Of a stretch of DNA of 64,000 nucleotides, positions 3,991 through 61,473 are shown piece by piece. The DNA is from Candidatus Parcubacteria bacterium (GTDB taxonomy: Bacteria > Patescibacteriota > Minisyncoccia > UBA6257 > HR35): positions 143,915 to 207,914 of the forward strand of contig BPJI01000001.1 of NCBI GenBank assembly GCA_026004535.1. Direction: 5' to 3'. Under the pieces are notes generated by a model. The model did no database searches and was not told the origin of the DNA. It saw only the letters and a list, made by a program, of their open reading frames with translations. Numbering within the stretch: position 1 is the stretch's first letter; every line of letters begins with the position of its first letter. Both the position numbers and the translations under genes were made by a program.

Positions 3991-4156
3991 TTCGTTAACC
4001 ATTAACATAACTGAAGTATGATACCGGGTCATCCCGAACCGTGCTCTGCTCTGGTGCGGGGTAAAGGTAAACAGAAATGACTAAGAGAAAACAGAAAGTT
4101 TATCCTAATTGCAAAAGGCCGATGAATAAATACTACTACTAAGCCAATAAACCGAA

Positions 4157-5636: not shown

Positions 5637-5677
5637 AAGTCGGAAGCTGAGAAGTTATGAAGCTGTGAAGTTAGCAT

Positions 5678-8654: not shown

Positions 8655-8925
8655 AATTAATCCACGGATTTACACGGATTAATAATCACCACGGATTAAC
8701 ACGGATAAAGTATTACCCCACTGATTAACACGGATTTATAGTAACCACTGATTATCACGGATAACATACTAATCCACTGATTAACACGGATCTATTATAA
8801 TCCGCGTATATCCGTGGTTAAATAATATCCGCGCATATCCGTGTGAATCCGCGGTTTATAATAATCCGCATATATCCGTGGCTAATTATATCCGCGTAAA
8901 TCCGCGGCTAAATAAAATTTTCCTC
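8655..8925. repeat. Dense inverted array of ~25 CACGGAT / ATCCGYG heptamer units (~11 bp phasing) between topA and dprA, extending into the dprA 3' end
   Basis: Left half in cacggat orientation (ccacggatttacacggattaataatcaccacggattaacacggataa...); right half inverted (atccgcgtatatccgtgg...atccgcgtaaatccgcggc). Confidence 0.85.
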
Positions 8926-15985: not shown

Positions 15986-16828
15986 AAAGGTTGAAATAAA
16001 CCTGTTGTCCTCCCTCTTGGTAACAAGAGGGTAACAAAAACGCCTTATAACGGTAGAGCCTGAAAGGGTAATACCGTGGGAAGTTAAGAAGGTAAAAATG
16101 AAAATAACTAAAGAACAAAAAGCAGCTTTGATTGGAATGATTTTAGGCGATGGTTATTTACAGTCAACTGGAAAGAAGAATGCCAGATTAAGATTAGAGC
16201 ATAGAGCGCAACATTATGAATATCTGGTTTGGAAAATGAAATTGTTGCCACAACTTTTTCAAGGTAAACCGAAAATAATAAAAAGACAACACCCCTTGAC
16301 AAAAAGAATTTATAGTTATGTTAGATGCCAATCAAATTCTTCGCCTTTGTTGGGAAAGTTAAGAAGATTGTTTTATCAAGATGGTCAAAAGAAAATCCCT
16401 GAAAATATAGAAAAACTGCTAATTGATGATCTTACATTTGCAATCTGGTTTTATGATGACGGTTATTATTCTAAAAAGGATGGTTATTGTGCTATATATT
16501 TGGGGAAGATTTCTTTTGCTGAAGCTAAACTTTTGAGTCAAGCAATAACCAATAAATTCAATCTTAAAAATAAAGTTGTTGATAAAAAGAATAAAGGCTT
16601 TATGTTGTACTTTCCAGCAAGTGAGAAGATAAAGATCAAAAATATTCTTCAAAAATATTTTGTTCCAATAATGAGTTATAAAATACCTTCTTAACCCCGT
16701 AACGACTGAAGTGTTAAGCTGAGAGACAGAGATATCTACTCTGTCTAAGACGGCGTTCTCATACAAAAAATGGAGATTAGACTCCATTTTTGTATGATGA
16801 AGATATAGTCTAATCCTTAAAGGATTGA
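15986..16828 (+). mobile_element. Group I intron in 23S rRNA at the GGGAUAA/CAGGC (omega-type, E. coli ~2449) site
   Basis: Exon sequence resumes as aacaggctggttgggcccgagagtccatatcgacgg; intron ends in G after a 5' exon U; contains a LAGLIDADG ORF. Confidence 0.75.
16098..16694 (+). CDS. LAGLIDADG homing endonuclease (intron-encoded)
   Basis: 198 aa; [11 protein letters not shown] motif plus a second half-site motif region; located inside 23S intron 1. Confidence 0.8.
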
Positions 16829-16953
16829 ACAGGCTGGTTGGGCCCGAGAGTCCATATCGACGGCCCAGCTCGGCACCTCGATGTCGGCTCACCCTAGCGC
16901 GGGGCTGAACAAGGTCCCAAGCGTCGGGCTGTTCGCCCGTTAAAAGGGTACGT

Positions 16954-16989
<36 letters not shown>

Positions 16990-17035
16990 TTATCTGCTGT
17001 CAGCGTTTGGAAGCCTGAGAGGAGCTGGACCTAGT

Positions 17036-17848
17036 AAATAATTGCTACTTCCTTGAGTAATCAAGGATGACAAAGTGGCTCATAACGGTAAAAGCCAGGG
17101 TTGGTCGGATAAACATCCTCACATAGACAGTCGGTCCCTGTCTATGCTATAATTTACTTGAGGACCGATGTTAACCTGAGGCTAATACCGTGGGAAGTCA
17201 ATCTAAAGCGAACAAAATTCATTTAGCTTATATTACTGGCTTTTTAGATGGCGATGGTAGTTTAATGATGCAAATTAAAAAGAGAAAAGATATTCAAAAC
17301 GGAAAAAGATTTAGTCAACTATTTGTTTTTATCAAGACAGTGGTCATGAAAGGCCACTGTTCTGGATTAGAAAGCAATTAGGCATCGGTTATATAAGTAG
17401 AAGGAATGATGGGATTACTGAATTAAGAATTAATGGATGTCGAACTATGGCAAGAATCTTAAAAATGCTGAAGCCGTATATAAAATTTAAAGTTAAACAA
17501 GTAGATATTATGATAAAATGCGGGCAACTTCTCCAAAGGAAGTTGAGCGAAAATAATTTAAAGAAAATAGCAGTGTATATCTATGAACTGCAGAAAGCCA
17601 ATTATGCAACTAGACGCAAGAAAACATTATCAGAAATTTGTCAAGCTTTAGGTTTGACCCCGTAACGACTGAGGCGAAAGCCGAGGGTTGAGATTTTTAT
17701 CTCAGCCAAGACGCCACCACCTACAACAAATGGAGGTGAGAAGTTAGAGATGGGGAATGAGTAATTAATTCTCGCGTCTCATCTCGCACCTTCATTAGTC
17801 GTAGGTTGAAGGTATAGTCTACTCCTTCTAGTAATAGAGGGGTTAGTG
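17036..17848 (+). mobile_element. Second group I intron in 23S rRNA, inserted in the sarcin-ricin-loop region (CCUAGU/ACGAGAGGACC)
   Basis: 5' exon ...ggagctggacctagt; 3' exon acgagaggaccggtctgg; shares ...taataccgtgggaagt... and ccccgtaacgactga...aagacg blocks with intron 1. Confidence 0.7.
17190..17665 (+). pseudogene. LAGLIDADG homing endonuclease split into two ORFs (frameshift)
   Basis: ORF 17190-17381 has YITGFLDGDGSL; ORF 17447-17665 continues a LAGLIDADG C-terminal half in another frame. Confidence 0.65.
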
Positions 17849-17927
17849 ACGAGAGGACCGGTCTGGGGCAGCCTCTGGTGTAGGAGTTGTTCCTCCAGGA
17901 GCATAGCTCCGTAGCTAAGCTGCCAAG

Positions 17928-17960
<33 letters not shown>

Positions 17961-18170
17961 CACCTCAAGATTAGGCTTCCCCATTAGGCCCCGGATAGAC
18001 CATCCGGTTGATAGGCCACAGCTGTAAGCTCCGTAAGGAGTTGAGGCAAGTGGTACTAATGGCCGATTGTTTTGCTGGACTTTGTCATCTCAGCACTGCA
18101 TCTTTTCCCCAATATACAGAACTATCAGAACTGGCGCAGAACTTACAGAATTGATTTATTAATTGCTTTT

Positions 18171-18296
18171 CCTCCCCGTGGTCGTATGTCTAGTCTGGAA
18201 CCACCCCTTACATTCCGAACAGTCAGGTGAAACAGACTAGAGCCGATGATAGTCCTTTAAGGGCGAAAGTAGGTACTGCGGGGAGGATTTTTAATT
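18171..18296 (+). rRNA. rrf: 5S rRNA
   Basis: cctccccgtggtcgtatgtctagtctggaaccacc...ccgaacagtcaggtgaaac...gtactgcggggagg with terminal helix pairing. Confidence 0.85.
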
Positions 18297-21140: not shown

Positions 21141-21276
21141 GATAGAAGATTTAATTTGGATCTGTAGTTTATAGGACATTAAACTGTTCCTTATAGCTCC
21201 GGTCTTTCACTTTGATCGGGTCTGGAGCTCATCGGACGGCAAGCTGTCCTCACAGCCACAGTCCCTCGCTTCGCTC

Positions 21277-21350
21277 GGGCCTGTAGCTCAGTTGGTTAGA
21301 GCGCTGCCATGGCATGGCAGAGGTCGGGGGTTCGAGTCCCCCCAGGTCCA
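21277..21350 (+). tRNA. tRNA-Ala (anticodon GGC)
   Basis: gggcctgtagctcagttggttagagcgctgccatGGCatggcag...ggttcgagtccccccaggtcca; G3:U70 Ala identity pair present. Confidence 0.85.
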
Positions 21351-23207
21351 CTAATAACTTAAAGCATCGCAGTCAATTTCTTCAATTTCTATTCCTTCTA
21401 AAAGTTTTTTAAGGTTAAAATCAAGTTTTGGTTTAGTTTTAATAATTAATTCTAAAAAGAATCTTTTTCTAATTTTAAATGGCCGGGCAAAGATTGGACC
21501 AAAAATTTCTATTTCCGGGTTTTCTTTTTTTAGTCTTTCTTTAATGAAAAATAATTTCTCTTGAAGTTTTTTTAAATCTATACCCCCCTCTTTTAAAATA
21601 ACTAATCTCCGAAATGGCGGCAAACTATTAATTTCTCTTTCCTTTATTAATTCATTTATTATTTCTCCTGTTTTTATTTTTGCTTCAACTCGAGGATTAA
21701 TGATGTTACCAACTAAAAATATTTTTTCAGTTTTATTTTTAAAAAAATTTAAAATCCTGATAAATTTTTCTTTAACAAAAAAGTCCTGGGCAAAGTAAAA
21801 TTCATCAAAGTTATAGAAGAAAAAAGCATCAAAATTTTCAATTAGAGGATTAAGCAAAAGCAAACTCCCAATTAAAATATATCTTTCTTCTTGATTAAAC
21901 TCCTTGATTATTTTCTTACTTTCTTTTTCTAAAAAATAAATATTCTTTTTTTTATCAAAGTCATTATTTTCTGTCAGTTCTGCGTTAGTTCCACTTAGTT
22001 CTGCGTTAGTTATTGTTTTTATTAATTTATAAATAGCCTTAGCTCCCTTATGAGAAATTAAAAAACTCGATTTTTTCTTACAAAAAGGACAAATTTCGGG
22101 TAAGTTTTGATTTTTTAAACAATAAGAGCAGTAAATAAAATTTTCTTCAGCAGCCAAGAATTTACCGCAAATATTACAAGTTAAAGTTTGCAGACAAGAT
22201 TCACAAATCAAACGGTAGCCAAAAGTTTTTTCCGGAACAAAAATAACTATCTTCTTAAATTCTTTAATTTTATCTTCAAACTCTTTTTCTGAAATTCTTT
22301 CTATAACTACGAATTGTCGCGAATTATTATACGAATTCCCGCGAACATAACCTAAATTAAATTGTTGCGATTTATTCATGTTAATTTGTTTTTTTATTTG
22401 TGTTGATTCGTAAATTAATAAATCAAAAGAAGGTAAGTCAGAAATAGCTAAGTATTTTATCTTATTAATTTCAGCGAATTTTAAAAATATTTTGCGATAA
22501 TCAAAATAAGGTGGTTTGAAAAATTCTTTGTAAAAAAACGAGCCTTCATCATAAACAATTAATTGATCTAAATTTTGCCAAGGCAAAAATATTGAGTTTT
22601 TATTACCAATAAAGGTTTCTTGATTGGTGCTAGTAATTTTTTCTAAAAGAGAAAAGAAACTTTTTTGTTGGGGCAAAATTAAATTTGCTTGAGGCAAAAT
22701 CTGTTTTAAATATTCTAAATAATTTTCTTGAGGAACAATAATTAAACTTTTTTTATTTTTTAAAATATTTTCATTAAGTTGAGACAAAACTTCAATTTCA
22801 AATTTTTTATTTAATCCGCGTTGATCCGTGTTTGATCTGCGTAAATCAGTAGCCATCATTTTCTTATAAGGGAAAAATAAAGATAAAGCAGTAGCTAAAG
22901 AAATATTGCTGTAATTTTTTAACCAAAAAGCTAATTGAAGTTGCTGTTTAGTTAATAAAGGCGAAGGATTAATAATTTTTAAGACAGGTTTTAATTGAAG
23001 TTTTTTTTCTTTTAACAGGGCTCTTCTTTTTTCAATTGATTCAAGATTAAAAACATAACCTGGTATTTTTCTTTTTTTGAATTCAACTTCAACAATAGCT
23101 CCTCTTTTGATTTTCTTTTCTGAGAAATAAGAGAAAAAATCAGGCGCATTGCTCGGTAATCTAATTAGTGGTATAATATCTATAATTAAATATTTTGATT
23201 TAATCAT
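21351..23207 (-). CDS. priA: Primosomal protein N' (PriA)-like, with Cys4 zinc-binding region but no recognisable Walker A; carries two in-frame repeat inserts
   Basis: 618 aa; N-terminal 3'-DNA-binding-like region; LIIVPQENYLEYLKQ (helicase motif Ia-like); YDEGS; CESCLQTLTCNICGK...CSYC...CPFC; inserts ATDLRRSNTDQRGLN and ITNAELSGTNAELTENND. Confidence 0.65.
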   Translation of the reverse strand: MIKSKYLIIDIIPLIRLPSNAPDFFSYFSEKKIKRGAIVEVEFKKRKIPGYVFNLESIEKRRALLKEKKLQLKPVLKIINPSPLLTKQQLQLAFWLKNYSNISLATALSLFFPYKKMMATDLRRSNTDQRGLNKKFEIEVLSQLNENILKNKKSLIIVPQENYLEYLKQILPQANLILPQQKSFFSLLEKITSTNQETFIGNKNSIFLPWQNLDQLIVYDEGSFFYKEFFKPPYFDYRKIFLKFAEINKIKYLAISDLPSFDLLIYESTQIKKQINMNKSQQFNLGYVRGNSYNNSRQFVVIERISEKEFEDKIKEFKKIVIFVPEKTFGYRLICESCLQTLTCNICGKFLAAEENFIYCSYCLKNQNLPEICPFCKKKSSFLISHKGAKAIYKLIKTITNAELSGTNAELTENNDFDKKKNIYFLEKESKKIIKEFNQEERYILIGSLLLLNPLIENFDAFFFYNFDEFYFAQDFFVKEKFIRILNFFKNKTEKIFLVGNIINPRVEAKIKTGEIINELIKEREINSLPPFRRLVILKEGGIDLKKLQEKLFFIKERLKKENPEIEIFGPIFARPFKIRKRFFLELIIKTKPKLDFNLKKLLEGIEIEEIDCDALSY

Positions 23208-25702: not shown

Positions 25703-26718
25703 CCCTGATTGCTTTTTTATTTTTTATTGGTTTGTTAATTTTAGTTCATGAATTAGGGCATTTTCTCGGTGCTAAAAAGGTTGGTCTTAAAGTTGAAGAA
25801 TTTTCAATCGGTTTCCCACCAAAAATTTTTTCCAAAAAAATTAAAGATACGGTTTATTCTTTAGGCTTAATTTTATTTGGTGGTTATGTTAAATTAAAAG
25901 GCGAAAATGATCCGCAGGATTTAGAAGGGTTTTTAAATTTAAAACCAATAAAGAAATTAATCGTTGTTTTAGCTGGCATCTTTTTTAACATTATTTTGGC
26001 TTACTTTTTCTTTGCTTTTAGTTTAAATCTAGGTTATCCAGTTGAGACAAATAAAATTTTTGTTTCTGGTTTTTTAAATAAAAATACTCAGGGTTATAAA
26101 TATTTTAAGATCGGCGATGAAATTGTGGCTGTTAAAATTAATGATAAAATCTTTAAACCAGAAAGTCCTCTTGCTTTATCTAAATTTTTAAAGGAAAATC
26201 AAGGTAAAGAAGTTGAAATTTTTTATTTAAGAGATGGTCAAGAATTATCAGCTAAAGTTGTGCCACCAGTTGGTTTTTACATAGCTAATTTTAAATTAGA
26301 AAAAACCTCCTTGCCCTATAGTTTCATTTTAGCTTTTGAAAAAACTTTTACTTCTTTTAAAAAAATAATTTTTGGTTTTGGTCAGGCAATTAAAAGTTTA
26401 ATCACTAAAGAAAAAATTGATTTAGAGATAATTGGACCAGTTGGCATTTATAATTTATTTGACAATTTTAAAAATTTTGGTTTAGGTTATTTATTTTATT
26501 TTTTAGCTGTTTTATCTTTAAATTTAGCTTTTATTAATCTTTTACCTTTTCCAGCTTTAGATGGTGGTCGAGCGATTTTTATTATTTTTGAAATTTTAAC
26601 TCGCAAAAGAATTAATTACCAAAAAGAAGAAATAATTCATCGACTTGGTTTTATTTTTTTACTGTTTTTACTTCTAGTGGTCACTTTTAAAGATATTTAT
26701 AAATTATGGTTCAAATAG
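25699..26718 (+). CDS. rseP: Site-2 protease RseP (M50 zinc metalloprotease)
   Basis: HELGHF zinc motif in TM1; PDZ-like middle region; LDGG motif. Confidence 0.85.
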   Translation: MTLIAFLFFIGLLILVHELGHFLGAKKVGLKVEEFSIGFPPKIFSKKIKDTVYSLGLILFGGYVKLKGENDPQDLEGFLNLKPIKKLIVVLAGIFFNIILAYFFFAFSLNLGYPVETNKIFVSGFLNKNTQGYKYFKIGDEIVAVKINDKIFKPESPLALSKFLKENQGKEVEIFYLRDGQELSAKVVPPVGFYIANFKLEKTSLPYSFILAFEKTFTSFKKIIFGFGQAIKSLITKEKIDLEIIGPVGIYNLFDNFKNFGLGYLFYFLAVLSLNLAFINLLPFPALDGGRAIFIIFEILTRKRINYQKEEIIHRLGFIFLLFLLLVVTFKDIYKLWFK

Positions 26719-28205
26719 GGAAAGGAAATTTTTCTGACTGGTATATTAACCTTATTTTAAAAGCTAACCTGATTGATTATGGGCCAGTTAAGGGCACGAT
26801 TGTTTTTAAGCCTTATGGTTATCGAATTTGGGAAAAATTAATGTTTATTGTTGATAATGAAATCAAACAATTTGGCACACAAAATGTTTACTTCCCAATT
26901 TTTATTCCCGAAAGTTTTTTAAGCAAAGAAAAAGAACACTTAGAAGGTTTTTCACCTGAGGTAGCCGTGGTAACTTATGCCGGTGGCGAAGAGTTAAAAG
27001 AAAAATTGATTGTTAGACCAACTTCAGAAACAATAATGTATCCAATTGTGGCTAAATGGATTAAATCTTATCGTGACCTACCTTTAATTATCAATCAATG
27101 GACAAATGTTATTCGTTGGGAAAAAAGACCATTTCCTTTTATTCGCAATACTGAATTTTTATGGCACGAAGGGCACAGTTTGCACTCTAGTCACCAATCA
27201 GCCTTAGAATTAGTTTTTAAAGTTTTAGCTATGTATCAAAAGATTTATCAAGATGTTTTGTGTATCTATGGTGTTAGCGGCAGAAAATCAGAATCAGAAA
27301 AATTTGCTGGTGCCTTGGCAACTTATACTTATGAAATTTTAATGCCTGATGGCAAAGCTTTGCAAGGCTGTACTTCTCATGATTTAGGTCAAAATTTTGC
27401 CAAGGTTTTTAATGTTCGTTTTCAAGATAAAGATAAAAAATTAAAATATGTTTGGCAAACATCATGGGCAATAACAACTCGAGCTATCGGTGCTTTAATT
27501 GGTGTTCATGGTGATGATTATGGTTTGATTTTGCCGCCAAAAATTGCGCCTTATCAAGTTGTTGTTATCCCTATTTATGATAAAAAGCATGATAAAAAAA
27601 TAAGGGCTTTTATTGAAGATATACAAAAAGAACTGACGCAAGTATATATTTCTGTAAGTTCTGCGTTATTTCCGCGTCTTTCTGCATTAGATATTTATGT
27701 TGATGATTCAGAACATACGCCTGGTTATAAATTTAATGAATGGGAATTAAAAGGCGCACCACTAAGAATTGAAATTGGTTATCAAGAATTGAAAAATCAA
27801 ACTTTAACTTGTTTTCGGCGAGATAAAAGAGAAAGATTTAAATTAAAATTAAATGAATTAAAAAATAATCTCAGTAATATTTTTACTGAGATTGAAAAAA
27901 ATTTATTTTTAAGATCAAAAGAATTTACTGAAAAAAATACTTATTTTGTTAAGGATTACCAGGAGTTTAAAAAAATTATGAAAACAAAAAGAGGATTTAT
28001 TCAAGCTTATTGGTGCGAAAAAGAAGAATGTGAGAGTAAAATTAAGGAAGAGACAAAAGCAACAACAAGATGTCTTCCTTTGGATATTAAAAATTCGCGG
28101 ATTACGAATTATAAGTTACGACTTACAAATTACAGTTCAAAGGGAAAATGTGTTTATTGTGGTAAAAAAGCCAGAAATGTCTGGCTTTTTGCCCAGAGCT
28201 ATTAA
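26706..28205 (+). CDS. proS: Prolyl-tRNA synthetase (archaeal/eukaryotic-type class II) with two short repeat-derived inserts
   Basis: 499 aa; class II motifs; C-terminal Zn-binding C..C and ...FAQSY end; inserts VSSALFPRLSALD and NSRITNYKLRLTNYSS. Confidence 0.85.
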   Translation: MVQIGKGNFSDWYINLILKANLIDYGPVKGTIVFKPYGYRIWEKLMFIVDNEIKQFGTQNVYFPIFIPESFLSKEKEHLEGFSPEVAVVTYAGGEELKEKLIVRPTSETIMYPIVAKWIKSYRDLPLIINQWTNVIRWEKRPFPFIRNTEFLWHEGHSLHSSHQSALELVFKVLAMYQKIYQDVLCIYGVSGRKSESEKFAGALATYTYEILMPDGKALQGCTSHDLGQNFAKVFNVRFQDKDKKLKYVWQTSWAITTRAIGALIGVHGDDYGLILPPKIAPYQVVVIPIYDKKHDKKIRAFIEDIQKELTQVYISVSSALFPRLSALDIYVDDSEHTPGYKFNEWELKGAPLRIEIGYQELKNQTLTCFRRDKRERFKLKLNELKNNLSNIFTEIEKNLFLRSKEFTEKNTYFVKDYQEFKKIMKTKRGFIQAYWCEKEECESKIKEETKATTRCLPLDIKNSRITNYKLRLTNYSSKGKCVYCGKKARNVWLFAQSY

Positions 28206-30325: not shown

Positions 30326-32106
30326 TTGATGAAGAAATTCTTTTTCAACCCCGGGGCAAAAGAGTTAAGACAAGTTATTTTAAGAATCAAAACATCTTTC
30401 TTTTCGTTTTTTCTTTAATTTTTCTTTCAGGCTTAATTTATTTTTTCTACCTACAGATTTTCTTTAAACAAAAATATTTAGCTCTTGAAAAAAATTTAAA
30501 GACAATTACTTATTTTGCTTTCCCTCCTCGAGGAAAAATTTTAGATTCCCAAGGAAAAACTTTAGCTGAAGCTGAACTTACTTTTGATGCCTATGTTGAT
30601 TTAAATAAAATTCAACAATTACCATTTCAACTTTCAGGTAAATTTTTTTATCGTGGTAGTCAATTAATTATAAGAGACATTCCTCGAGAGATTGCTTTAA
30701 ATTTTTTAACTAAAAAAATTGATGGCTTAGAGATTGTGCCTTCTTTTAAAAGAGTTTATTTAGGTCATGAAGAGATTGGTAGTCTAATTGGTTATGTTGG
30801 TTTTCCTTCGAAAAATGAAACAAAATATTATCAAGAAGAATTTGTTGGCAAATCAGGTCTTGAATTGGTCTATCAAGATTATCTTAGGGGCGAGTTGGGT
30901 GAAATTGTTTATCAAATTCAAAAAAATAATTTAAGGAAGATAAAAGAAACCCAACCGCAGCCAGGTAAAAATTTGGTTTTAACTATTAATTATGATTTCC
31001 AGAAAAAGGCTTATGAGTTAATTGATGATTATTTAAGAAGAAACAATTATAAAAAAGCTGCTTTTATAGCTTTAAATCCAAATACTGGAGAAATTATTTC
31101 CTTAATTTCCTATCCTTCTTATGACCCCAATTGGTTTTTAACTAATCCAGATAAAGTCAATCAAATTTTGCAAGACAAAAATCAACCTTTGTTTAATCGA
31201 GTCGTGAGTGGTCTTTATGCTCCTGGTTCAACAATTAAATTAATTGTTGCTGCCGGTGCTTTAGAGGAAAAAATTGTTAGTCCAGAGACAGAAATTTATG
31301 CTGCTGGCGAGCTTAGATTACCTAATCCTTATTTTCCTGGTACTTATTCTATTTTTAAAGATAATAAAATTCATGGTTGGACAAATATCTATAGGGCAAT
31401 TGCTGACTCAGTTAATATTTATTTTTATGTTGTTGGCGGTGGTTATCCTTATGCTAATGATAAAATTCCAATCAGACAAGGCTTAGGCATTGAAAGATTG
31501 AATAAATGGTGGCAAAATTTTGGTTTAGGTCAAAAAACAGGCGTTGATTTAAACGGTGAAAAATCTGGCTTTTTACCATCGCCTCAAACAAAAGCAAAGA
31601 ATATTTTTGACCCTACCTGGCGTTTAGGTGATACTTATAATGTCGCAATTGGTCAAGGAGATATTTTGGTTACACCACTTCAAATTGCTTTATGGACAAG
31701 TGCTTTTACAAATAATAAAATTTACCAACCATTTATCGTCAAAAAAATTATTGATGATCAAGGAAAAATTATTTTTGAAAGGCAGTCAAAAATTTTAAAA
31801 GAAAATTTAATCAGCGAAGAAAATTTAAAAATAATCCAGAAAGCAATGAGAATGACAGTTACTCAGGGAACAGCTCAAATTCTTAATGATTTACCAGTTG
31901 CAGTTGCTGGCAAAAGTGGAACTCCGGAAATTTTTGCTAAAAAGAAATTGAATGCTATTTTTACTGGTTATTTTCCATTTGAAAAACCCGAAGTTGTAAT
32001 GACTTTACTAATTGAAGATGTGCCAAGTGGTTCAGTCGCTACTTTACCTTTGTATAAAGAATTAGTCAAAGCTTATCTAGAATCAGAACATGGAAGAAAT
32101 TTTTGA
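30322..32106 (+). CDS. mrdA: Penicillin-binding protein 2 (elongasome transpeptidase)
   Basis: 594 aa; N-terminal TM; SxxK (GSTIKL), SxN (SVN) and KSGT motifs. Confidence 0.85.
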   Translation: MIDEEILFQPRGKRVKTSYFKNQNIFLFVFSLIFLSGLIYFFYLQIFFKQKYLALEKNLKTITYFAFPPRGKILDSQGKTLAEAELTFDAYVDLNKIQQLPFQLSGKFFYRGSQLIIRDIPREIALNFLTKKIDGLEIVPSFKRVYLGHEEIGSLIGYVGFPSKNETKYYQEEFVGKSGLELVYQDYLRGELGEIVYQIQKNNLRKIKETQPQPGKNLVLTINYDFQKKAYELIDDYLRRNNYKKAAFIALNPNTGEIISLISYPSYDPNWFLTNPDKVNQILQDKNQPLFNRVVSGLYAPGSTIKLIVAAGALEEKIVSPETEIYAAGELRLPNPYFPGTYSIFKDNKIHGWTNIYRAIADSVNIYFYVVGGGYPYANDKIPIRQGLGIERLNKWWQNFGLGQKTGVDLNGEKSGFLPSPQTKAKNIFDPTWRLGDTYNVAIGQGDILVTPLQIALWTSAFTNNKIYQPFIVKKIIDDQGKIIFERQSKILKENLISEENLKIIQKAMRMTVTQGTAQILNDLPVAVAGKSGTPEIFAKKKLNAIFTGYFPFEKPEVVMTLLIEDVPSGSVATLPLYKELVKAYLESEHGRNF

Positions 32107-32980
32107 AAAACCAAATTTAAATGAAGAAGAAAAATATTTAATCGAGCCATTTTTTACCAATTTAGATAAATCAGTTTATGGTATTTTGTTTTTGCCTCCA
32201 GAAGTTGTTGGTGCCTTGTGTTCTCGCGCTTCAAGAGCTAAAGAAGATTTGAGAATTGTTTTCCTTAAAGAATTTGTTAAACCATTTTTAGAAACTGAAT
32301 ATGGTAAAAGTTTGAAAAATTTTATTGATTTTTTACACCAACATCCAGCCGAAGTTTTATTTAACAATCCTAAAGCTAGAGAATTTTATATTAAATGGTT
32401 AGCTGAATATGGTGATGATTCAATTGCTCAAATGGCTGGTACTCATTTAGTTTACTCATCTTTATCTCAAATTGCTATTAAGCATATTGAAAATCAAAGA
32501 ATTGGTCTAGCTCCAATTGAAAAATCAACTCGTTATGTTGATTATTCTCTTAAGATTAATAATCATTATCTTTATTTTACACCGCCAGAAATTGAAAAAC
32601 TTGGTTTGAAAGAGGAATATGAAAAAACAATAGACAATATTTTCGAAACTTACATTTTTCTTTTTCAAAAATACCTTGATTACTTAAAGATTAAATATTC
32701 TGAAGAAAAGGAAATTGTTTTAAAAACAAAAGTTTTTGATACGATTAGAATAATTTTACCTTTAAGTACATTAGGACAATTAGCTCTTTTTGGCAATGGC
32801 CAAGCATTTGAATATTTAATTAATAGATCATTAGAGCATCCTTTGGCAGAAATAAGATGGTTAGGTCAAAGGGCTTATGAAGAATTAAATAAAATTATTC
32901 CGGCATTTTTAAGAAGAGTTGAAAAAGAAGAAAGTAAAGAATATAGAAAATATTTAGGCTCAAAGAAGCCAAAAAATTAG
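32090..32980 (+). CDS. ThyX-like (FAD-dependent thymidylate synthase fold) protein with a degenerate RHR motif
   Basis: GALCSRASRA resembles the ThyX N-terminal AARVSY block; IAIKHIENQRIGLAPIEKSTRY aligns to the ThyX RHR...SGRY block but reads NQR. Confidence 0.4.
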   Translation: MEEIFEKPNLNEEEKYLIEPFFTNLDKSVYGILFLPPEVVGALCSRASRAKEDLRIVFLKEFVKPFLETEYGKSLKNFIDFLHQHPAEVLFNNPKAREFYIKWLAEYGDDSIAQMAGTHLVYSSLSQIAIKHIENQRIGLAPIEKSTRYVDYSLKINNHYLYFTPPEIEKLGLKEEYEKTIDNIFETYIFLFQKYLDYLKIKYSEEKEIVLKTKVFDTIRIILPLSTLGQLALFGNGQAFEYLINRSLEHPLAEIRWLGQRAYEELNKIIPAFLRRVEKEESKEYRKYLGSKKPKN

Positions 32981-33082
32981 AGAAATTCAATTTTGAAGAT
33001 CGATAAGACGCTTAAGACGTCAATACTCTTAAGATAAAGTTAAATTAATCGAATATGATCCCTGAAGGTGAAGATAAGATAA

Positions 33083-33949
33083 TTGCTGGACTTTTGTATC
33101 CTGAAGTCTAAAGAACCTTATGAGAAAATTTTAGCTAAAGTTAAGAAGCCTTTCTTTATCAGAGAAAGAAGAAAGATTTTAGAAAAAGTTTTGAAAGAGA
33201 GAAAATATCGCTGGTATAAAGTGCCTCGAGCTTTTGAAAATGTTTATTTAAGATTTGAAATTTTATTAAATATTGGTGCTTGGCGAGATTTACAAAGACA
33301 TCGAATGCAAACTCAATATCATCAAAAATTTACACATTGATAATGGCTTTGATGTCCCTGAAGAATTAAAAGAAATTGGTTTGGAAGAAAAATTTATCTT
33401 CAGCTATTAAAAAATTAGAAACCTTTTATCAAAAAATTAAAGATCCAGATTTAGCTCAATATGCAGTTAGTTTTGCCCATCGCGTTCGTTTTATTCAATA
33501 TCAAAATTTAAGACAATTTTTTTGGGAAACAGAACTAAGAACAACTCCCCAGGGCCATCCTGATTATCGTAAAATCGAGCAAGAAAAAGCAAAAATAATT
33601 CAAAAAATTTATCCTTTGATTGCTAAATATTTATTAGTTGATTTTCAGGAATATGAATTTGCCCGACGCGAAAGCATTAAAAAAATAAAAGTCAAAGAAG
33701 AAGAATTAAGAAAGATGATATAATTATTTTAGGTCAAAATTAAATTTATTTTTTAAGATGAATAATCATATATATAATTTATTTTCTCAATTGGTTCAAA
33801 ATCGAAGAAGTATTTATCGGATTCAAAAGTTTTATTTAAAAGATGCTCGAGGTTGTAAAAAATGCCTGGATTTTTGGAAGCAAGTTTTAAAGCAAAAAGA
33901 AGCAGAGACAAAAGAACTTATTAATTTAATCAAGGCTCATAAAATCTAA
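33083..33949 (+). pseudogene. Frameshifted fragments of a second ThyX-like domain (RHR motif present)
   Basis: ORF 33083-33340 ends ...GAWRDLQRHRMQTQ...; continuation GFDVPEELKEIGLEEKFIF is in another frame; ORF 33376-33723 is in a third frame; 32981-33082 is stop-rich. Confidence 0.45.
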
Positions 33950-34241
33950 ATTTACTCATCTCCACTACTTAATACCATAGTATTCATATCGGGACAGATG
34001 ATATCCCGATATTTTTCTGAAGCTGAGAACTTGGAAGCTTATCCTAAACTCTACGTGGTTTAGGGTTATTTTCTGTTAGTTCTGTGTTTTATAACAGAAA
34101 AAGATTTCAAACTTAAAACTGGTTCAATTCTCTATTGCTACGTAGCAATGAACTTTTTGCCTTTTTTATTAGAAATTTAAAATTTAAGACGTAAGACGTC
34201 TTAAACATTAATTTATGCTATGAAACTAGGAAGCTGAGAAG

Positions 34242-34343
34242 CTATTTAGTTGCTTCATAAAGAGCCTTTATTTCTTGGTCTGATAAAGCACGATTATAGA
34301 TTCGGACTTCATCGATGAGACCTTGAAAATAGATAGCGCACCT
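34242..34343 (-). pseudogene. Orphan C-terminal fragment of a LamG-domain protein
   Basis: Minus-strand translation ...GLIDEVRIYNRALSDQEIKALYEATK* is the classic LamG/concanavalin C-terminal motif; an in-frame stop lies 8 codons upstream. Confidence 0.6.
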
Positions 34344-35594: not shown

Positions 35595-35728
35595 TTTTTT
35601 TAATTATAACACATTAACTTGTGAACTCGTTAATTCGTTAACTTTTGAATCGAATAATCAAATATATGATATAATTATAACGTATAAGAGGCTGAAACCT
35701 AAGAAGCTGAGAAGCTGAAAGATAAATT

Positions 35729-35802: not shown

Positions 35803-35879
35803 CAATGTCGTTAATTAAGTTATTGAAATTCAAATTCGCGTAGATCTGCGTTAAAATTCGCGTAGATCCGCGTTAATTC

Positions 35880-55480: not shown

Positions 55481-55753
55481 CTACCCGGATGAATACCGGA
55501 TTGTTTTACCCTGATGGTTACCGGAATAGATTACCCGGATAGTTAACCGGATTATATTTACCCGGATGATTACCGGATAAAAAATATTTTATAAATCATC
55601 CGGTTTAAATCCGGGTGACTTATCCGGTTATAATACGGGTAGAAGTTGTTATCTGGTTTATATCCGGGTATTTGTAGTATTTACATCCGGTTTGAATCCG
55701 GGTAGTTATATCCGGTTCATATCCGGGTAGTATTATCCGGTTTAAATCCGGGC
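55481..55753. repeat. Intergenic inverted ('palindromic') array of ~20 TACCCGGAT/ACCGGATAA units with ~11-12 bp phasing, upstream of nrdJ
   Basis: Left arm ctacccggatgaataccggattg...ttacccggatgattaccggataaaaaat; centre ~55595; right arm inverted atccggtttaaatccgggtga...atccggttcatatccgggtagtattatccggtttaaatccgggc. Confidence 0.85.
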
Positions 55754-55813: not shown

Positions 55814-58800
55814 ATGCCCAAAAGAACATTGACTTCTAATCAGGTTGTTTTTAAAACAAGTTCAAATTTTTTAAAAATCCAAAGATTTTTTACTAAAGAA
55901 AGAGTGCACCCTTATGATGAGGTTAAATGGATAAAAACAACAGCTGAAATTCCAGGTTCTAATTTTAAAATGGAAGATGTGGAATTTCCTGATTTTTACA
56001 GTCAAAATGCAATTAATATTATTGCTTCTAAATATTTCAAAATCAACAAAGGTAAACAAGAAAAAAGTTTAAAAGAACTAATTGATCGAGTTGTTAAAAC
56101 GTTTAAAAAATGGGGTTTAGAACAGGGTTATTTTAATGAAAAAGAAGCCAAAATTTTTGAGGATGAACTAACTTATATCTTGCTTCATCAATATGCTGCT
56201 TTTAATTCTCCTGTTTGGTTTAATTTCGGTGTTGAAGGAAGAAGTCAACAAGGCGCAGCTTGTTTTATCTTAGATGTTCAAGATAATATGGAATCAATTT
56301 TGGATTGGATTAAAACTGAAGGAATGATTTTTAAAGGAGGCTCAGGCTCTGGAGTTAATTTGTCAAAATTAAGAGCCAAAGGAGAACCTCTTTCAACTGG
56401 CGGTGCTTCTTCTGGAGTTATTTCTTTTATGAAAGCAGCCGATGCAGTTGCAGGAAGTATAAAATCTGGTGGAAGTACGCGTAGGGCGGCAAAGATGGTG
56501 ATTTTAAATGCTGATCATCCTGAAATTATGGATTTTATAAGAGTTAAAGCTGAGGAAGAAAATAAAGTTAGAGCCTTAATGGAGGCAGGTTATGACATGA
56601 CTGATCTAAATAATCCTTTGTGGCAAAATATTTTCTTTCAAAATGCTAATAATTCAGTTAGAATTCCTGATGATTTAATGGAAGCAGCAATGAAAGATGA
56701 AAAATGGCAGACTTATTATCGAACAACAGGTAAGGCTTCACAAGCTTATAAAGCTAAGGATATTTTGTGGGAAATTGCTAAAGCTGCTTGGGAATGTGGT
56801 GATCCAGGAGTTCAATTTGATGACATTATTCAAAAATGGCATACTTGTAAAAATTCAGGACGAATTGAAGCAACCAACCCTTGTAGCGAATATATATTTC
56901 TTAACTGGACAAGCTGCAACTTAAGTTCAATCAATCTTTTGAAATTCTTAAAAGAAGATGGTAAGTTTGATATTCCTGCATTTTTGCATACTGTCAGAGT
57001 AATGTTTTTAGCTCAAGATATTATGATTTCAAAAGCTGATTATCCTCATCCAAAAATTACTGAAGAAACTAAAAAATATCGAACAATTGGTTTGGGTTAT
57101 ACTAATTTAGGCGCCTTGATTATGGCTTTGGGTCTTCCTTATGATTCTGATGAAGCAAGAAATTTGGCTGCAAGTATTACTGCCTTAATGACCGGGGAAG
57201 CCTATAAACTTTCAACCCAAATTTCAGCTAAACTTGAACCATTTCCTGAATATGAAAAAAATAAAGAACCAATGTTGGAGGTAATGGAAATGCACCGAAA
57301 AGCTCTATTGAAATTAATACAGAACTTTACAGAACTAAAACAAAACTCGCAGAAAAAACACAGAACTGACGGAACTAACACAGAACTTACAGAAAATATC
57401 GCCGCAGAACATACAGAACTAATACAGAACTTGCAGAAAAATTCAGCTAGTTCTGCGTCATATTCTGTTAGTTCTGTTACTGAGGAAATTTTAGAAAAAG
57501 CAAAAGAAGTTTGGGATGAAGTAATTGAAAATGGAAAAAAATATGGCTTCAGGAATGCTCAAGCAACAGTAATTGCGCCTACTGGTTGTTTAGTAGGGAA
57601 TAGTTTAATTTCAACTGAATACGGTTTAGTTCCGTTAGAAACACTTGGGAATCCATTGGGTTATAAGTGGCAAGATTTAAATATTGAGGTGATGACCGAT
57701 GAAGGACCACAATTAGCTACCAAATTTTATGTTAATGGTTTAGTTGAAACTAGAAAAATAGTTACTAAAAATGGTTATGAAATCGTAGGCACTCCAGAAC
57801 ATAGAATTAAAGTTTTCGATAAAGAATCTGGTGAGCTTAAATGGAAATATTTTGCTGATATCAAAGAGGGAGATATTGTAGCTTTAGAAATGAATACAAT
57901 TTTTGGCAGTCCTAAGCCAATCGAACTTCCACCTTTACCAGAACTTCATTGGAATCAAGATTTTGATGCCAAAGTTCCAAGACATATGAATGAAGAATTA
58001 GCAGAAATAGTTGGCTATTTTATGGGCGACGGCAGTCTACATTCTAAAGGTTTAAGATTTTGCGTGACCCAAGAAGATAAAGATGTGATTGAAAGATTAA
58101 GATATTTAATTAAAAGTCAATTTAATCTTGATATATTTTTAACCCAGAGGCTTGGTTATATAGAAGTTAGCGTAAACTCAGTTCCTCTTGTTTTATGGTG
58201 GGAAGCTTGTGGTTTTAAAAAGAAACAAAAGAAAGTTGGTAAAGGCTGGGAACCTCATATTCCTCTTACTATCCTTTATTCTAACGATCGAAAAATTTAT
58301 ACTGCTTTTTTAAGAGGTCTTTTCGAAGCAGATGGTACTGTCTGGAAGGATTCAAAAACTCCAGCTCTTTCGACTCATAGCAAAGAATTTCATGACCAAA
58401 TAAAATATTTACTTTTAGCTTTAGGAATACCAACAAAATCTAAAATTGGAATTTCAGGTTGGGACAAGAAAAACCTCTATGTTCTTTATGTGAAAAATAG
58501 AGAATATGCTAAAAAATTCGGAGAAGAAATTGGTTTTATTGGAGAAAGAAAAAATAAATTACTTGAAAATATCACCACAAAACCTAGTCAAATAAAAATG
58601 GATCAAGTTTATCTTTCTCAAAATCTTGTTGAAGCCATAACACCTCTTTTAACCAAAAGGGAAAGAGACAGTTTAAGGTTAGAATTTAAAAGAAAAAATG
58701 CTATTACTAGAAGTTTTGCTTTAAGGATTTTAGATAAAGTTGAAAATAAAGCCTTTAACTATTATGTAAATAAAATTTTCTTTGATGTTGTCAAAACAAA

Positions 58801-59944
58801 TGAATCAGCTGGAGAAAATCTTACTTATGACCTTTCTGTTCCAACAAATGTAACTTATATTGCTAATGGTTTTATCAGTCATAATACAATTTCTTTTATG
58901 ATGGATGCAGATACAACTGGAGTTGAACCCGATTTTGCTTTAGTTAAAATGAAACAACTTGTTGGTGGTGGTTATATGAAGATTGTAAATAGAACTATTC
59001 CTCTTGCCTTAAGAAGACTTGGCTATAGCGAAAAAGAAATTGAAGATATTGTTAAACATTTAGAAGAAACTCAAAATATTGAAACAGCGCCTCATCTAAA
59101 ACCAGAGCATTTATCTGTTTTTGATTGTGCTATTAAGCCACCCGGAGGAAATAGATATATTCATTGGCTAGGACATGTAAAAATGGTTGCTGCTATTCAA
59201 CCATTTATTAGCGGTGGAATCTCGAAAACTTTCAATATGCCTAATGAGACTTCAATTCAAGAAATTTATGATGCCTACTTTACTGCTTGGAAATTAGGAA
59301 TTAAATGTTTTGCTGTTTATCGTGATGGTTCAAAAGCAACTCAGGCTTTATACAGTGAAAAAAAGGAGAAGAAAAGCAAAGAAAAAATTGAAAGACGAAA
59401 ACTACCTTTAGTTAGGCAATCTGAAACTCATAAATTTTCAATTGCCGGCCATGAAGGTTACTTAACCTATAGCATTTTTGAAGATGGTTCTTTGGGTGAA
59501 ATTTTCATTCGTATGTCAAAACAAGGAAGTACTTTGGCTGGTCTTTTGGATGCTTTTGCAATTTCAGTTTCGATTGCTCTTCAATACGGTGTGCCTTTAA
59601 AGGAATTGGCAAGTAAATTTGTTTATATGAGATTTGAGCCAATGGGAATTACTAATAATCAAAAAATACCAATTGCAAGTTCAATTATTGATTATATTTT
59701 TAAATATCTTGGTTATAAATTCTTAACTCCAGAAGAATTAAAAGAAATAGGTTTAGAAGTTAAAGAGGAATCTATCTTAAAAGAACATCCAAGATTAATT
59801 GAATCAAAATTTGAGTTAGATCCGGTGAAGACAGAAAATAATTTATCTGGTCCGCCATGTAAATATTGTGGTGGAATGACGACTCGAACTGGTAGTTGTT
59901 ATACTTGTTTAGAATGTGGTGAAACTTCTGGCGGTTGTAGTTAG
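55814..59944 (+). CDS. nrdJ: Class II (adenosylcobalamin-dependent) ribonucleotide reductase NrdJ, interrupted by a LAGLIDADG intein and carrying an in-frame ACAGAACT-repeat insert
   Basis: 1376 aa precursor; SPVWFNFG, ACFIL, ATNPCSEY, C-terminal Cys-rich tail; host junction VIAPTG|C...SHN|TISFMMDADTTGVEPDF restores the conserved APTGT...GVEP block. Confidence 0.85.
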   Translation: MPKRTLTSNQVVFKTSSNFLKIQRFFTKERVHPYDEVKWIKTTAEIPGSNFKMEDVEFPDFYSQNAINIIASKYFKINKGKQEKSLKELIDRVVKTFKKWGLEQGYFNEKEAKIFEDELTYILLHQYAAFNSPVWFNFGVEGRSQQGAACFILDVQDNMESILDWIKTEGMIFKGGSGSGVNLSKLRAKGEPLSTGGASSGVISFMKAADAVAGSIKSGGSTRRAAKMVILNADHPEIMDFIRVKAEEENKVRALMEAGYDMTDLNNPLWQNIFFQNANNSVRIPDDLMEAAMKDEKWQTYYRTTGKASQAYKAKDILWEIAKAAWECGDPGVQFDDIIQKWHTCKNSGRIEATNPCSEYIFLNWTSCNLSSINLLKFLKEDGKFDIPAFLHTVRVMFLAQDIMISKADYPHPKITEETKKYRTIGLGYTNLGALIMALGLPYDSDEARNLAASITALMTGEAYKLSTQISAKLEPFPEYEKNKEPMLEVMEMHRKALLKLIQNFTELKQNSQKKHRTDGTNTELTENIAAEHTELIQNLQKNSASSASYSVSSVTEEILEKAKEVWDEVIENGKKYGFRNAQATVIAPTGCLVGNSLISTEYGLVPLETLGNPLGYKWQDLNIEVMTDEGPQLATKFYVNGLVETRKIVTKNGYEIVGTPEHRIKVFDKESGELKWKYFADIKEGDIVALEMNTIFGSPKPIELPPLPELHWNQDFDAKVPRHMNEELAEIVGYFMGDGSLHSKGLRFCVTQEDKDVIERLRYLIKSQFNLDIFLTQRLGYIEVSVNSVPLVLWWEACGFKKKQKKVGKGWEPHIPLTILYSNDRKIYTAFLRGLFEADGTVWKDSKTPALSTHSKEFHDQIKYLLLALGIPTKSKIGISGWDKKNLYVLYVKNREYAKKFGEEIGFIGERKNKLLENITTKPSQIKMDQVYLSQNLVEAITPLLTKRERDSLRLEFKRKNAITRSFALRILDKVENKAFNYYVNKIFFDVVKTNESAGENLTYDLSVPTNVTYIANGFISHNTISFMMDADTTGVEPDFALVKMKQLVGGGYMKIVNRTIPLALRRLGYSEKEIEDIVKHLEETQNIETAPHLKPEHLSVFDCAIKPPGGNRYIHWLGHVKMVAAIQPFISGGISKTFNMPNETSIQEIYDAYFTAWKLGIKCFAVYRDGSKATQALYSEKKEKKSKEKIERRKLPLVRQSETHKFSIAGHEGYLTYSIFEDGSLGEIFIRMSKQGSTLAGLLDAFAISVSIALQYGVPLKELASKFVYMRFEPMGITNNQKIPIASSIIDYIFKYLGYKFLTPEELKEIGLEVKEESILKEHPRLIESKFELDPVKTENNLSGPPCKYCGGMTTRTGSCYTCLECGETSGGCS
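57305..57485. repeat. In-frame inverted array of ACAGAACT units inside nrdJ
   Basis: acagaactttacagaactaaaacaaaactcgcagaaaaaacacagaactgacggaactaacacagaacttacagaaaat...acagaactaatacagaacttgcag then inverted agttctgcgtcatattctgttagttctgtt; encodes ...HRTDGTNTELTENIAAEHTELIQN... Confidence 0.8.
57587..58885 (+). mobile_element. Intein (433 aa) with LAGLIDADG homing-endonuclease domain inside nrdJ
   Basis: Begins Cys (CLVGNSLIST...), internal YFMGDGSL and LRGLFEADGTV LAGLIDADG motifs, ends ...YIANGFISHN followed by Thr. Confidence 0.85.
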
Positions 59945-60822: not shown

Positions 60823-60844
60823 AAATTATATACCCCGATTATAA

Positions 60845-61181
60845 ACCGGATAATAATTTTTTCTACCTGGATGCAAACCGGATAAAACCACCCGGATTTA
60901 GACCGGATATAATTACCCGGATATAAACAGGATATAATTACCCGGATGTAAACCGGATAAGTTACCCGGATTATAACCGGATGATTTATAAAATATATTT
61001 AATCCGGTATTTATCCGGGTAATCTATCCGGTAAGTTATCCGTGTAAATATAATCCGGTATTCATCCGGGTAGATATTTTAATCCGGTGTTTATCGGGGT
61101 AATCTATCCGGTTGACTATCTGGGTAATATTTTAGTATCCGGTAATAATCCGGGTAATCTATCTGGTAGATATCCGGGTAA
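60845..61181. repeat. Second intergenic inverted array of CCGGATAA-family units between xerC and rpsO (divergent promoter region)
   Basis: Left arm aaaccggataataa...cacccggatttagaccggatataattacccggatataaacaggatataattacccggatgtaaaccggataag...; centre ~60985; right arm inverted atccggtatttatccgggtaatctatccggtaagttatcc... Confidence 0.85.
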
Positions 61182-61209
61182 TAAATTTTTATGTTATAAT
61201 TATTATACA

Positions 61210-61473
61210 ATGTCAAAAGTTAAAGAAAAAATTCAAGCTATAATTCAAAAATTTGGTAAGCACGAAAAAGATACTGGTAGCCCTGAAGTTCAAATTGCCT
61301 TATTGACTGAAGAAATTTTAAATATTCAAAGACACTTGGCTCAAAATAAGAAAGATAAACATTCTAAGCGAGGATTAATTTTAAAGATAGTTCAAAGAAG
61401 AAAACTTTTAAATTATCTTAAAAAAGAATCTTATACTCGTTATCGAAAAATAATTGAAGAGCTAAAACTATGA
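61210..61473 (+). CDS. rpsO: 30S ribosomal protein S15
   Basis: ATG at 61210 (MSKVKEKIQAIIQKFGKHEKDTGSPEVQIALLTEEILNIQRHLAQNKKDKHSKRGLILKIVQRRKLLNYLKK...); the ORF-track start at 61087 is a read-through of the repeat array. Confidence 0.85.
   Translation: MSKVKEKIQAIIQKFGKHEKDTGSPEVQIALLTEEILNIQRHLAQNKKDKHSKRGLILKIVQRRKLLNYLKKESYTRYRKIIEELKL

Follow-up and report, generated by a model that had tools for sequence, protein, structure and literature searches.

The window, that is, the whole 64-kb stretch of contig BPJI01000001.1 analysed here, is AT-rich (31% GC) and carries an array of short CAGAACT-type repeats inside nrdJ, the gene for a class II ribonucleotide reductase, with further copies in priA, proS, the 23S-5S rRNA spacer and one intergenic site. 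Proteins recorded as "Candidatus Parcubacteria bacterium" share 79-80% identity with its NrdJ and, judging from sequence likeness, the source is a Parcubacteria (Patescibacteria) genome. The genes of the window are typical housekeeping ones: recA, ftsK, smpB, topA, dprA, rRNA, priA, mreB, proS, PBP2, thyX, murein genes, recG, nrdJ, xerC/D, rpsO and pnp. The repeat is built from half-sites of about 10 bp (RCAGAAYT); the recurring unit is a dimer of about 20 bp (20-22 bp, RCAGAACT-N-RCAGAAWW-NNN, with 9/11 spacing), and two dimers form a module of four half-sites, about 40-45 bp long. Three direct modules and one inverted module are present in nrdJ, and every other site holds one module or less. 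The features at nrdJ are the following.

55814..59944, plus strand: nrdJ host gene, class II ribonucleotide reductase, 1376-aa precursor (Pfam domains, homologues)
57317..57481, plus strand: nrdJ insert of the CAGAACT family (NrdJ residues 502-556), net +147 bp / +49 aa compared with relatives
57319..57441, plus strand: left arm, 12 forward half-sites in three direct modules
About 57319-57359, 57360-57403 and 57404-57448, plus strand: the direct modules, 82-87% identical to each other
57442..57477, minus strand: right arm, one inverted module, AGTTCTGC ... ATTCTGT-AGTTCTGT, inverted-repeat pairs I1-I9
57587..58885, plus strand: LAGLIDADG intein in NrdJ, 433 aa (Pfam Intein_splicing, LAGLIDADG_3)

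The sequence ACAGAACT has 10 exact matches in the window against 1.46 expected, a number reached by none of 100 shuffles, and the dimer pattern RCAGAAH-N2-4-DCRGAA has 15 matches against 0.3 expected, with a maximum of 2 in 100 simulations. The dimer matches are confined to 57319-57477, 18116-18152, 21965-22015, 27645-27690 and 34071-34085, plus one at 40023 that is probably due to chance. A first-pass annotation of this DNA had placed an array at 57305-57485, which is borne out by the array found at 57319-57477 and by counts above expectation, and the copies it reported in priA, proS and the 23S-5S spacer lie where it had put them, in the host features that it had named. Its 11-bp phasing does not hold, as the half-site starts in nrdJ are spaced by 10, 11, 9, 11, 9, 11, 9, 15, 9, 11 and 10 bp, so that the spacing alternates between 9 and 11 and the period is that of the 20-22-bp dimer and the 40-45-bp module. 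The arrays had also been called invertible; both orientations do occur, but inversion itself is not borne out. Likewise, the inverted right arm exists as one inverted module, but the partial hairpin that it gives is modest, only moderately better than those of shuffles (RNA fold z = -2.9). The insert does lie just upstream of the intein, as had been claimed, the intein starting at 57587, 105 nt past the insert.

Intein domains begin 35 codons downstream of the nrdJ insert, and the intein is a separate element. Its insertion site reads APTG|C...HN|T, and none of the 60 best homologues has it, that on the syntenic contig L025 described below included. The possibility that the insert is itself an intein or a self-splicing intron was rejected, given that the intein domains start downstream at 57587 and that Rfam, searched over the whole window, gave no RNA family there. 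The other copies and their host features are the following.

18107..18166, plus strand: one-module copy in the 23S-5S spacer, half-sites at 18116-18152, net +60 bp
18102..18110, plus strand: possible target-site duplication, left copy, CTTTTCC-CC; the relative has a single CTTTTTTCCTCC
18166-18175: possible target-site duplication, right copy, CTTTTCCTCC
21351..23207, minus strand: priA host gene (Pfam PriA_3primeBD, PriA_C)
21960..22019, minus strand: priA copy of one module, in gene sense (PriA residues 397-416, KTITNAELSGTNAELTENND), net +60 bp (20 aa)
26706..28205, plus strand: proS host gene, archaeal/eukaryote-type prolyl-tRNA synthetase (ProRS; PDB ProRS match E = 6e-140)
27636..27689, minus strand: one-module copy in proS, antisense, ProS residues 311-328, TQVYISVSSALFPRLSAL, net +48 bp (16 aa)
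34066..34100, minus strand: fifth copy, intergenic, absent from the first-pass annotation; a solo dimer (reverse complement ACAGAACTAACAGAAAAT) facing a forward half-site, ACAGAAAAA

The copy at 18116-18152 is truly in the spacer, because the 23S match ends at 18066 (model position 2912 of 2925), with the gene extending to about 18079, and the 5S gene (18174-18284) starts at 18174. When the seven modules are aligned (four from nrdJ and one each from the spacer, priA and proS), 19 columns are invariant, and the identity between loci (64-84%) is like that within nrdJ (68-87%). In addition, nrdJ and priA share GGAACTAAC[A/G]CAGAACT[T/G]ACAGAAAAT, identical at 25 of 27 nt and translated as GTNTELTEN and GTNAELTEN; the peptides DGTNTELTEN in NrdJ and SGTNAELTEN in PriA are read in the same frame, in agreement with the first-pass annotation, which had noticed nearly one peptide in both genes. 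The invariant columns, the comparable identities and the 25/27-nt match together indicate that the copies share a common origin.

Half-sites and dimers are direct, non-palindromic repeats, without a GTAG or CGTC head. The module length of 41-45 bp is no multiple of 3, and one array accordingly contains the half-site in three frames, as QN, TE and RT; this threefold reading, the antisense copy in proS and the two untranslated copies argue that the array was assembled as DNA and not as a peptide repeat. An element kept open in all frames by design was considered and dropped, since the nrdJ copy is open in only two of six frames and the solo copies have stop codons in one or more frames of each; in-frame survival would therefore reflect selection, not design.

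A relative is represented by contigs L024 and L025, from the same Joint Genome Institute (JGI) sample 3300077104, which comprise about 44 kb at 77-83% DNA identity; L024 was reached via the PriA search, through the 69%-identical protein P0121. The gene order of L024 is that of the window between 9.4 and 33.2 kb, at about 77% DNA identity, and L025 is colinear with 40.9-64 kb at 75-84% identity. Presence or absence among related genomes, a check proposed in the first-pass annotation, gives a uniform result in this syntenic relative, where the sites are empty at all four original loci (nrdJ +147 bp, priA +60, proS +48 and spacer +60 in the window) and where the breaks in the alignment coincide exactly with the elements. 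The 44 kb of the relative contain four scattered CAGAACT heptamers and no array of any repeat family of the window, and no CAGAACT arrays occur in 22 kb of a more distant genome (L001). Because the syntenic relative and all other homologues are without them, the alignments identify these sequences as true insertions.

The repeat is also restricted in its distribution. The 20-mer TAACRCAGAACTKACAGAAA, taken from the conserved module, has seven single matches among 185,579 GTDB species genomes and 15 in JGI metagenomes, from unrelated taxa in both cases, and these are at chance level because none of them has neighbouring half-sites. A looser three-unit pattern gave at least 120 matches in viral contigs, all of them unrelated 9-bp coding repeats (PEL, SEL or TEL) that say nothing about this repeat. 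No account of such intragenic repeats in bacteria of the candidate phyla radiation (CPR) was found in the literature. The 20-mer scans, with the peptide search given below, mark the repeat as lineage-specific.

Inside the coding genes, the inserts occupy sites where the host proteins vary. Alignment of orthologues onto known structures, another check proposed in the first-pass annotation, maps the coding inserts of NrdJ, PriA and ProS to variable loops, and all three copies keep the reading frame, which upholds the claim that such arrays are tolerated inside essential genes. In NrdJ the insert, absent from all 60 best homologues, takes the place of a short loop, KVKENEFNK, between two helices; other Parcubacteria have indels of 3-17 aa there, and in the solved NrdJ structure 7b9q a 26-residue linker of its own stays unaligned at this position. 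The PriA insert comes after the Cys-rich zinc region and corresponds to a 20-residue gap in all eight aligned homologues, P0121 included. In ProS, the insert separates a helix of the anticodon-binding domain from the strand that follows it, at a 12-13-residue gap in the PDB ProRS entries 1h4q and 4twa (the T. thermophilus and P. falciparum enzymes). An AlphaFold2 run on the NrdJ N-extein, insert included, with 80 homologues, gave a mean predicted local distance difference test (pLDDT) score of 88.3, with flanks above 90 and residues about 511-550 at 54-79, and the insert is modelled as a helical hairpin prolonging the native helices. According to this model, a structure prediction also proposed at first pass, the NrdJ core is intact despite the insert. 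Among 5.8 billion protein clusters, none has three 5-residue words in common with the insert peptide.

The repeat is most likely a lineage-specific, non-coding DNA element of this Parcubacteria genome, and it is probable that it represents a non-autonomous selfish repeat, locally amplified by slippage or unequal exchange and dispersed by a putative trans-acting activity. Single modules have been inserted at the unlinked sites in priA, proS, the 23S-5S spacer and one intergenic region, and in nrdJ amplification has raised the module to three direct copies, beside a fourth, inverted one that gives the partial hairpin. Such spread would take place at the DNA level, blind to the host reading frame, and the survivors in essential genes would be those with a multiple of 3 bp, a stop-free host frame and a permissive surface loop. 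The spacer copy may be removed with the pre-rRNA spacer during processing. Mobility would most likely be provided by a trans-acting enzyme that is encoded elsewhere in the genome and recognises the half-sites, and ectopic recombination or templated repair might serve as a fallback mechanism. At the spacer site, the single CTTTTTTCCTCC of the relative flanks the insert on both sides in the window as a 9-10-bp CTTTTCC(T)CC, which appears as the only convincing target-site duplication among the junctions inspected; this one clean duplication favours transposition but does not establish it.

Several points weigh against the reading as a dispersed selfish repeat. No transposase or other candidate mobilising gene is encoded in the 64-kb window, whose sole recombinase is a XerC/D-like gene that has a same-position copy in the repeat-free relative. 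Target-site duplications are ambiguous at priA, proS and nrdJ, with nothing clear at proS and nrdJ, and the priA candidate TTTTTATCAA / TTTTTATTAA does not fit the net +60 bp. Convincing terminal inverted repeats are absent from the solo copies, as the ends of the spacer copy carry only CAAT...ATTG and the priA and proS copies have none. Translation of the surviving coding copies as filler peptides is presumed, and the comparison covers one genome window and one moderately distant relative, so that recent mobility and polymorphism within populations can only be supposed.

Three candidates for the identity or the mobiliser of the repeat were set aside. The Xer-like recombinase beside the CCGGAT array was dropped as a mobiliser, because the repeat-free relative carries the gene at the same position. 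A link to homing endonucleases, suggested by the distance of 105 nt between the nrdJ copy and the intein and of about 270 nt between the spacer copy and a 23S insertion, stays speculation because nothing of the kind lies next to the priA and proS copies. DNA-uptake sequences were set aside on general grounds of layout, as the known uptake signal sequences (USS) and DNA uptake sequences (DUS) occur singly or as inverted pairs, at about one per kb, and not as clean multi-unit insertions.

An alternative, which we regard as unlikely, is that the arrays are functional binding sites, with half-sites spaced by about one helical turn and occupied cooperatively by a nucleoid, partition or regulatory protein, and that the copies in genes are incidental. 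Arrays of binding sites are familiar from iterons, the parC centromere of plasmid R1 and the omega repressor, and in the window the half-site cores are conserved as the spacers vary, a 9-11-bp spacing is found in the CAGAACT and CGCGGAT families, and a dimer-array architecture is common to all families. However, the copies occur in either orientation, some of them inside essential open reading frames (ORFs) and one in an rRNA spacer, and their position relative to promoters and gene starts is inconsistent. The spacing of 11/14 in CCGGAT and 10/17 in CACGGAT dimers further shows that helical phasing is not general. Moreover, no rep or par gene adjoins the arrays in the window, and the relative has the same genes and, in 44 kb, none of these arrays.

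It is very unlikely that the inserts were selected for their peptides, for instance as helical or coiled-coil modules adding function to NrdJ, PriA and ProS. The nearly identical nonapeptide in NrdJ and PriA and the AlphaFold2 helices in the NrdJ insert would suit such a role, but one DNA unit is read in three frames within NrdJ, is read from the opposite strand in ProS to give an unrelated peptide, and is untranslated at two further sites. In addition, the confidence of the model is low over the NrdJ insert (pLDDT 54-79), and the insert peptide is without relatives among the protein clusters searched.

Independent local origin as ordinary coding microsatellites, with A/G-rich codons (GAA, ACA, AAT) of an AT-rich genome slipping during replication and converging on a similar sequence, is more improbable still and is largely refuted. 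The empty nrdJ site of the relative, AATGAATTTAATAAAGAA, is loosely dimer-like (about 10 of 18 positions), and unrelated viruses do have many 9-bp coding repeats containing CAGAACT; against this, one four-half-site module, alike down to its TAAC spacers and tail, occurs at five loci including non-coding and antisense ones, nrdJ and priA have 25 of 27 nt in common, neither the 20-bp period nor the module length of 41-45 bp goes in steps of 3, and the alignment with the relative breaks cleanly, with no partial precursors. Least credible of all is an artefact of assembly or sequencing, for example chimeric joining across a repeat, since, even though repeats and palindromes assemble poorly, the three coding inserts keep long ORFs with exact multiples of 3 (147, 60 and 48 bp), conserved protein sequence picks up directly after each insert, and the gene order around each copy is colinear with the relative.

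In behaviour, the selfish repeat favoured here matches Rickettsia palindromic elements (RPEs) and intragenic MITEs (miniature transposable elements with inverted repeats), both described in PMC2229807 and PMC10969869, and its structure differs from that which defines either group. Like RPEs, it consists of short non-coding repeats in a small, reduced genome with several families, lies in-frame at permissive sites in conserved housekeeping genes (nrdJ, priA and proS) and also at a stable-RNA locus (the spacer), would be translated as a surface filler, and has no known mobilising enzyme. RPEs are described, in the accounts of Ogata et al. 2000 given by PMC2229807 and PMC10969869, as single palindromes of 105-146 bp with terminal inverted repeats of about 12 bp, and PMC2229807 also summarises the finding that the RPE-bearing guanylate kinase of Rickettsia had equal or better activity once the insert was deleted. 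In contrast to RPEs, the present repeat is made of half-sites of about 10 bp, dimers of 20 bp and modules of 40 bp, its solo copies are one-armed and 48-60 bp long, and an inverted arm is found at the nrdJ copy only (z = -2.9); the hosts are Patescibacteria rather than Alphaproteobacteria, and a relationship in sequence to RPE-1 to RPE-10, which are confined to the genus Rickettsia, would not be expected.

The MITEs compared were the 107-bp form of Correia/NEMIS, ERIC/IRU, YPAL and cyanobacterial MITEs. The repeat resembles them in being small, AT-rich, non-autonomous and dispersed, in being sometimes fused in-frame to ORFs, in having one copy with a possible target-site duplication, in its multiple copies (five loci in 64 kb) and in its presence/absence difference (all four covered loci empty in the relative). 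These MITEs have defined terminal inverted repeats, usually duplicate TA or a short fixed sequence, and have a recognisable parent insertion sequence (IS), none of which is demonstrated here; no related autonomous IS lies within the 64-kb window, and the tandem half-site arrays are themselves unlike MITEs. As in repetitive extragenic palindromic (REP) sequences, bacterial interspersed mosaic elements (BIMEs) and REP doublets forming hairpins (REPINs), short repeats occur singly, in tandem and as inverted pairs able to form hairpins, and REPs and REPINs are thought to be moved in trans by one domesticated enzyme, the REP-associated tyrosine transposase (RAYT). However, REPs are individually palindromic (20-40-bp imperfect palindromes) with GTAG or CGTC heads and are extragenic (PMC3733652), whereas the half-sites here are non-palindromic and lack such heads, and three of the five copies are inside genes.

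Looser parallels exist with several other kinds of repeat. Long perfect coding palindromes are found in mitochondrial genes of Nematomorpha, where both arms encode conserved protein (PMC6649704). Inverted repeats are thus tolerated in essential protein-coding genes in both cases, but the insert described here is extra and non-conserved and has tandem sub-repeats. Coding micro- and minisatellites, products of slippage, arise locally and in coding DNA have a period divisible by 3; the repeat here has a period of 20 bp, or 41-45 bp for a module, and its module recurs at unlinked coding and non-coding sites. The ends of Tn7 (bound by TnsB), Mu, Tn402 and IS21 have multiple transposase-binding repeats. 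Like these ends and like iteron and centromere arrays, the window has direct repeats of about 10-22 bp that resemble binding sites and are mirrored by an inverted array, most clearly in the CCGGAT family, but, in contrast to transposon ends, no cargo, transposase, rep or par gene adjoins them and the arrays are far longer. Compared with iterons and partition centromeres, the 9/11-bp phasing is roughly present, but there is no adjacent rep or par gene and copies lie in ORFs.

The CAGAACT repeat is not alone in the window. Of 22 positions, 17 are the same in the CGCGGAT dimer, TAACGCAGATCTACGCGAATTT, and the CAGAACT dimer, TAACGCAGAACTGACAGAAAAT, and the families appear related for this reason; intermediate half-sites (ACGGAACT, GTGGAACT and GCGGAAAT) occur inside CAGAACT modules, and the CCGGAT arrays share the plan of a dimer array plus an inverted array. 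The CAGAACT, CGCGGAT and CCGGAT arrays look like one superfamily with the half-site AC-N-C-R-G-A-W. Of the three sequence-distinct families with one behaviour that the first-pass annotation had proposed, the shared behaviour stands, but the distinctness does not, in view of the 17/22 match and the intermediate half-sites. Two CCGGAT arrays, one upstream of nrdJ and one between xerC/D and rpsO, are clean insertions of about 330 bp, where the spacers of the relative measure 65 bp and 40 bp, and CCGGAT-type or CGCGGAT-type units occur in-frame in topA, priA and the linker of a lamin-tail-domain (LTD) protein. It could even be imagined, though we consider this doubtful, that the superfamily is a previously undescribed kind of mobile DNA in Patescibacteria, made solely of arrays of about 10-bp binding half-sites, which grows by dimers, flips into inverted arrays, and is moved by a dedicated, putative sequence-specific protein; if true, half-site-array mobile DNA without terminal inverted repeats would work by a mechanism unlike those of MITEs, REPs and RPEs.

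Selfish repeats inside essential genes were previously thought to be largely a Rickettsia peculiarity, and the present repeat would be an independent and differently built case; its occurrence in an ultra-small Patescibacteria genome suggests that reduced genomes repeatedly end up with such repeats. A putative DNA-binding or mobilising activity is indicated by the half-site architecture. Filled and empty sites, compared with a sister genome, could serve as natural "insertion scans" of loops in NrdJ, PriA, ProS and TopA. Moreover, caution is advisable in annotation, as repeat insertions may account for extra low-complexity segments of CPR proteins and for long rRNA spacers.

Further observations concern the other repeat families. 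The CCGGAT/CCGGGT family is found at 55482-55752, 60840-61184, 7395-7457 (topA) and 11250-11394 (the LTD-protein linker), with four to six 25-bp dimers in direct order and, after them, a comparable array in inverted order, which gives long hairpins (DNA z = -7.2); the topA and LTD-linker copies are read through in-frame. The CACGGAT/CGCGGAT family follows the same dimer-array plan at 8663-8911, 22810-22842 (priA) and 35832-35876, and priA holds one CAGAACT and one CGCGGAT-family insert, both in gene sense. In the LTD-protein linker of the relative (L024, 19760-19798), a perfect 20-bp palindrome, CCTGCCTGCCGGCAGGCAGG, adjoins GCGCAGATTTGACGCG, which resembles a CGCGGAT-family dimer; the same linker carries the CCGGAT array in the window. 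By this resemblance, GCGCAGATTTGACGCG may be a relic, the superfamily then being older than the split, or an independent insertion in a permissive linker.

As for other features of the window, the 23S rRNA gene (13416-18079) has two insertions of about 0.8 kb, at about 15988-16827 and 17037-17843, of which the first carries an ORF (16098-16694) for a LAGLIDADG_2 endonuclease; neither is present in the syntenic L024, whose 23S sequence matches at 96-98% on both flanks. The thyX gene is apparently broken into Thy1-domain ORFs at 32090-32980 and 33376-33723, with about 400 bp containing stops between them, whereas it is one gene of more than 533 aa in the relative; the window thyX (32090-33723) may be a pseudogene or contain an unrecognised insertion. 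The rpsO GTG ORF for S15 at 61087-61473 (128 aa) extends back into the CCGGAT array, and S15 of the relative has 87 aa; the true start is probably near 61211. A GC-rich stretch of 136 nt (21141-21276) separates tRNA-Val from tRNA-Ala, and the relative has neither tRNA-Val nor this stretch; another GC-rich patch (4032-4063) lies just downstream of smpB, a place where tmRNA might be expected, and neither stretch has an Rfam or ARAGORN match. At 21315-21470 on the minus strand there is an Rfam match to HPnc0260, a Helicobacter antisense RNA, at 61.7 bits where the gathering score is 59; this match overlaps tRNA-Ala and the priA 3' end and is probably spurious.

An intergenic "nest" at 33950-34300 mixes several mini-repeat families, namely GAAGCTG, the CAGAACT dimer and TAAGACG/AAGACGTCTTAA, and TAAGACG units are found again at 33004-33034. 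The GAAGCTG arrays have an 8-bp period and lie at 1408-1438, 5643-5673 and 35687-35718, as well as at about 34019 and 34231 in one intergenic stretch. Four other tRNAs in the window are without them, and the arrays directly 5' of tRNA-Gly(gcc), tRNA-Trp and tRNA-Thr come within about 4-10 nt of the mature 5' end.

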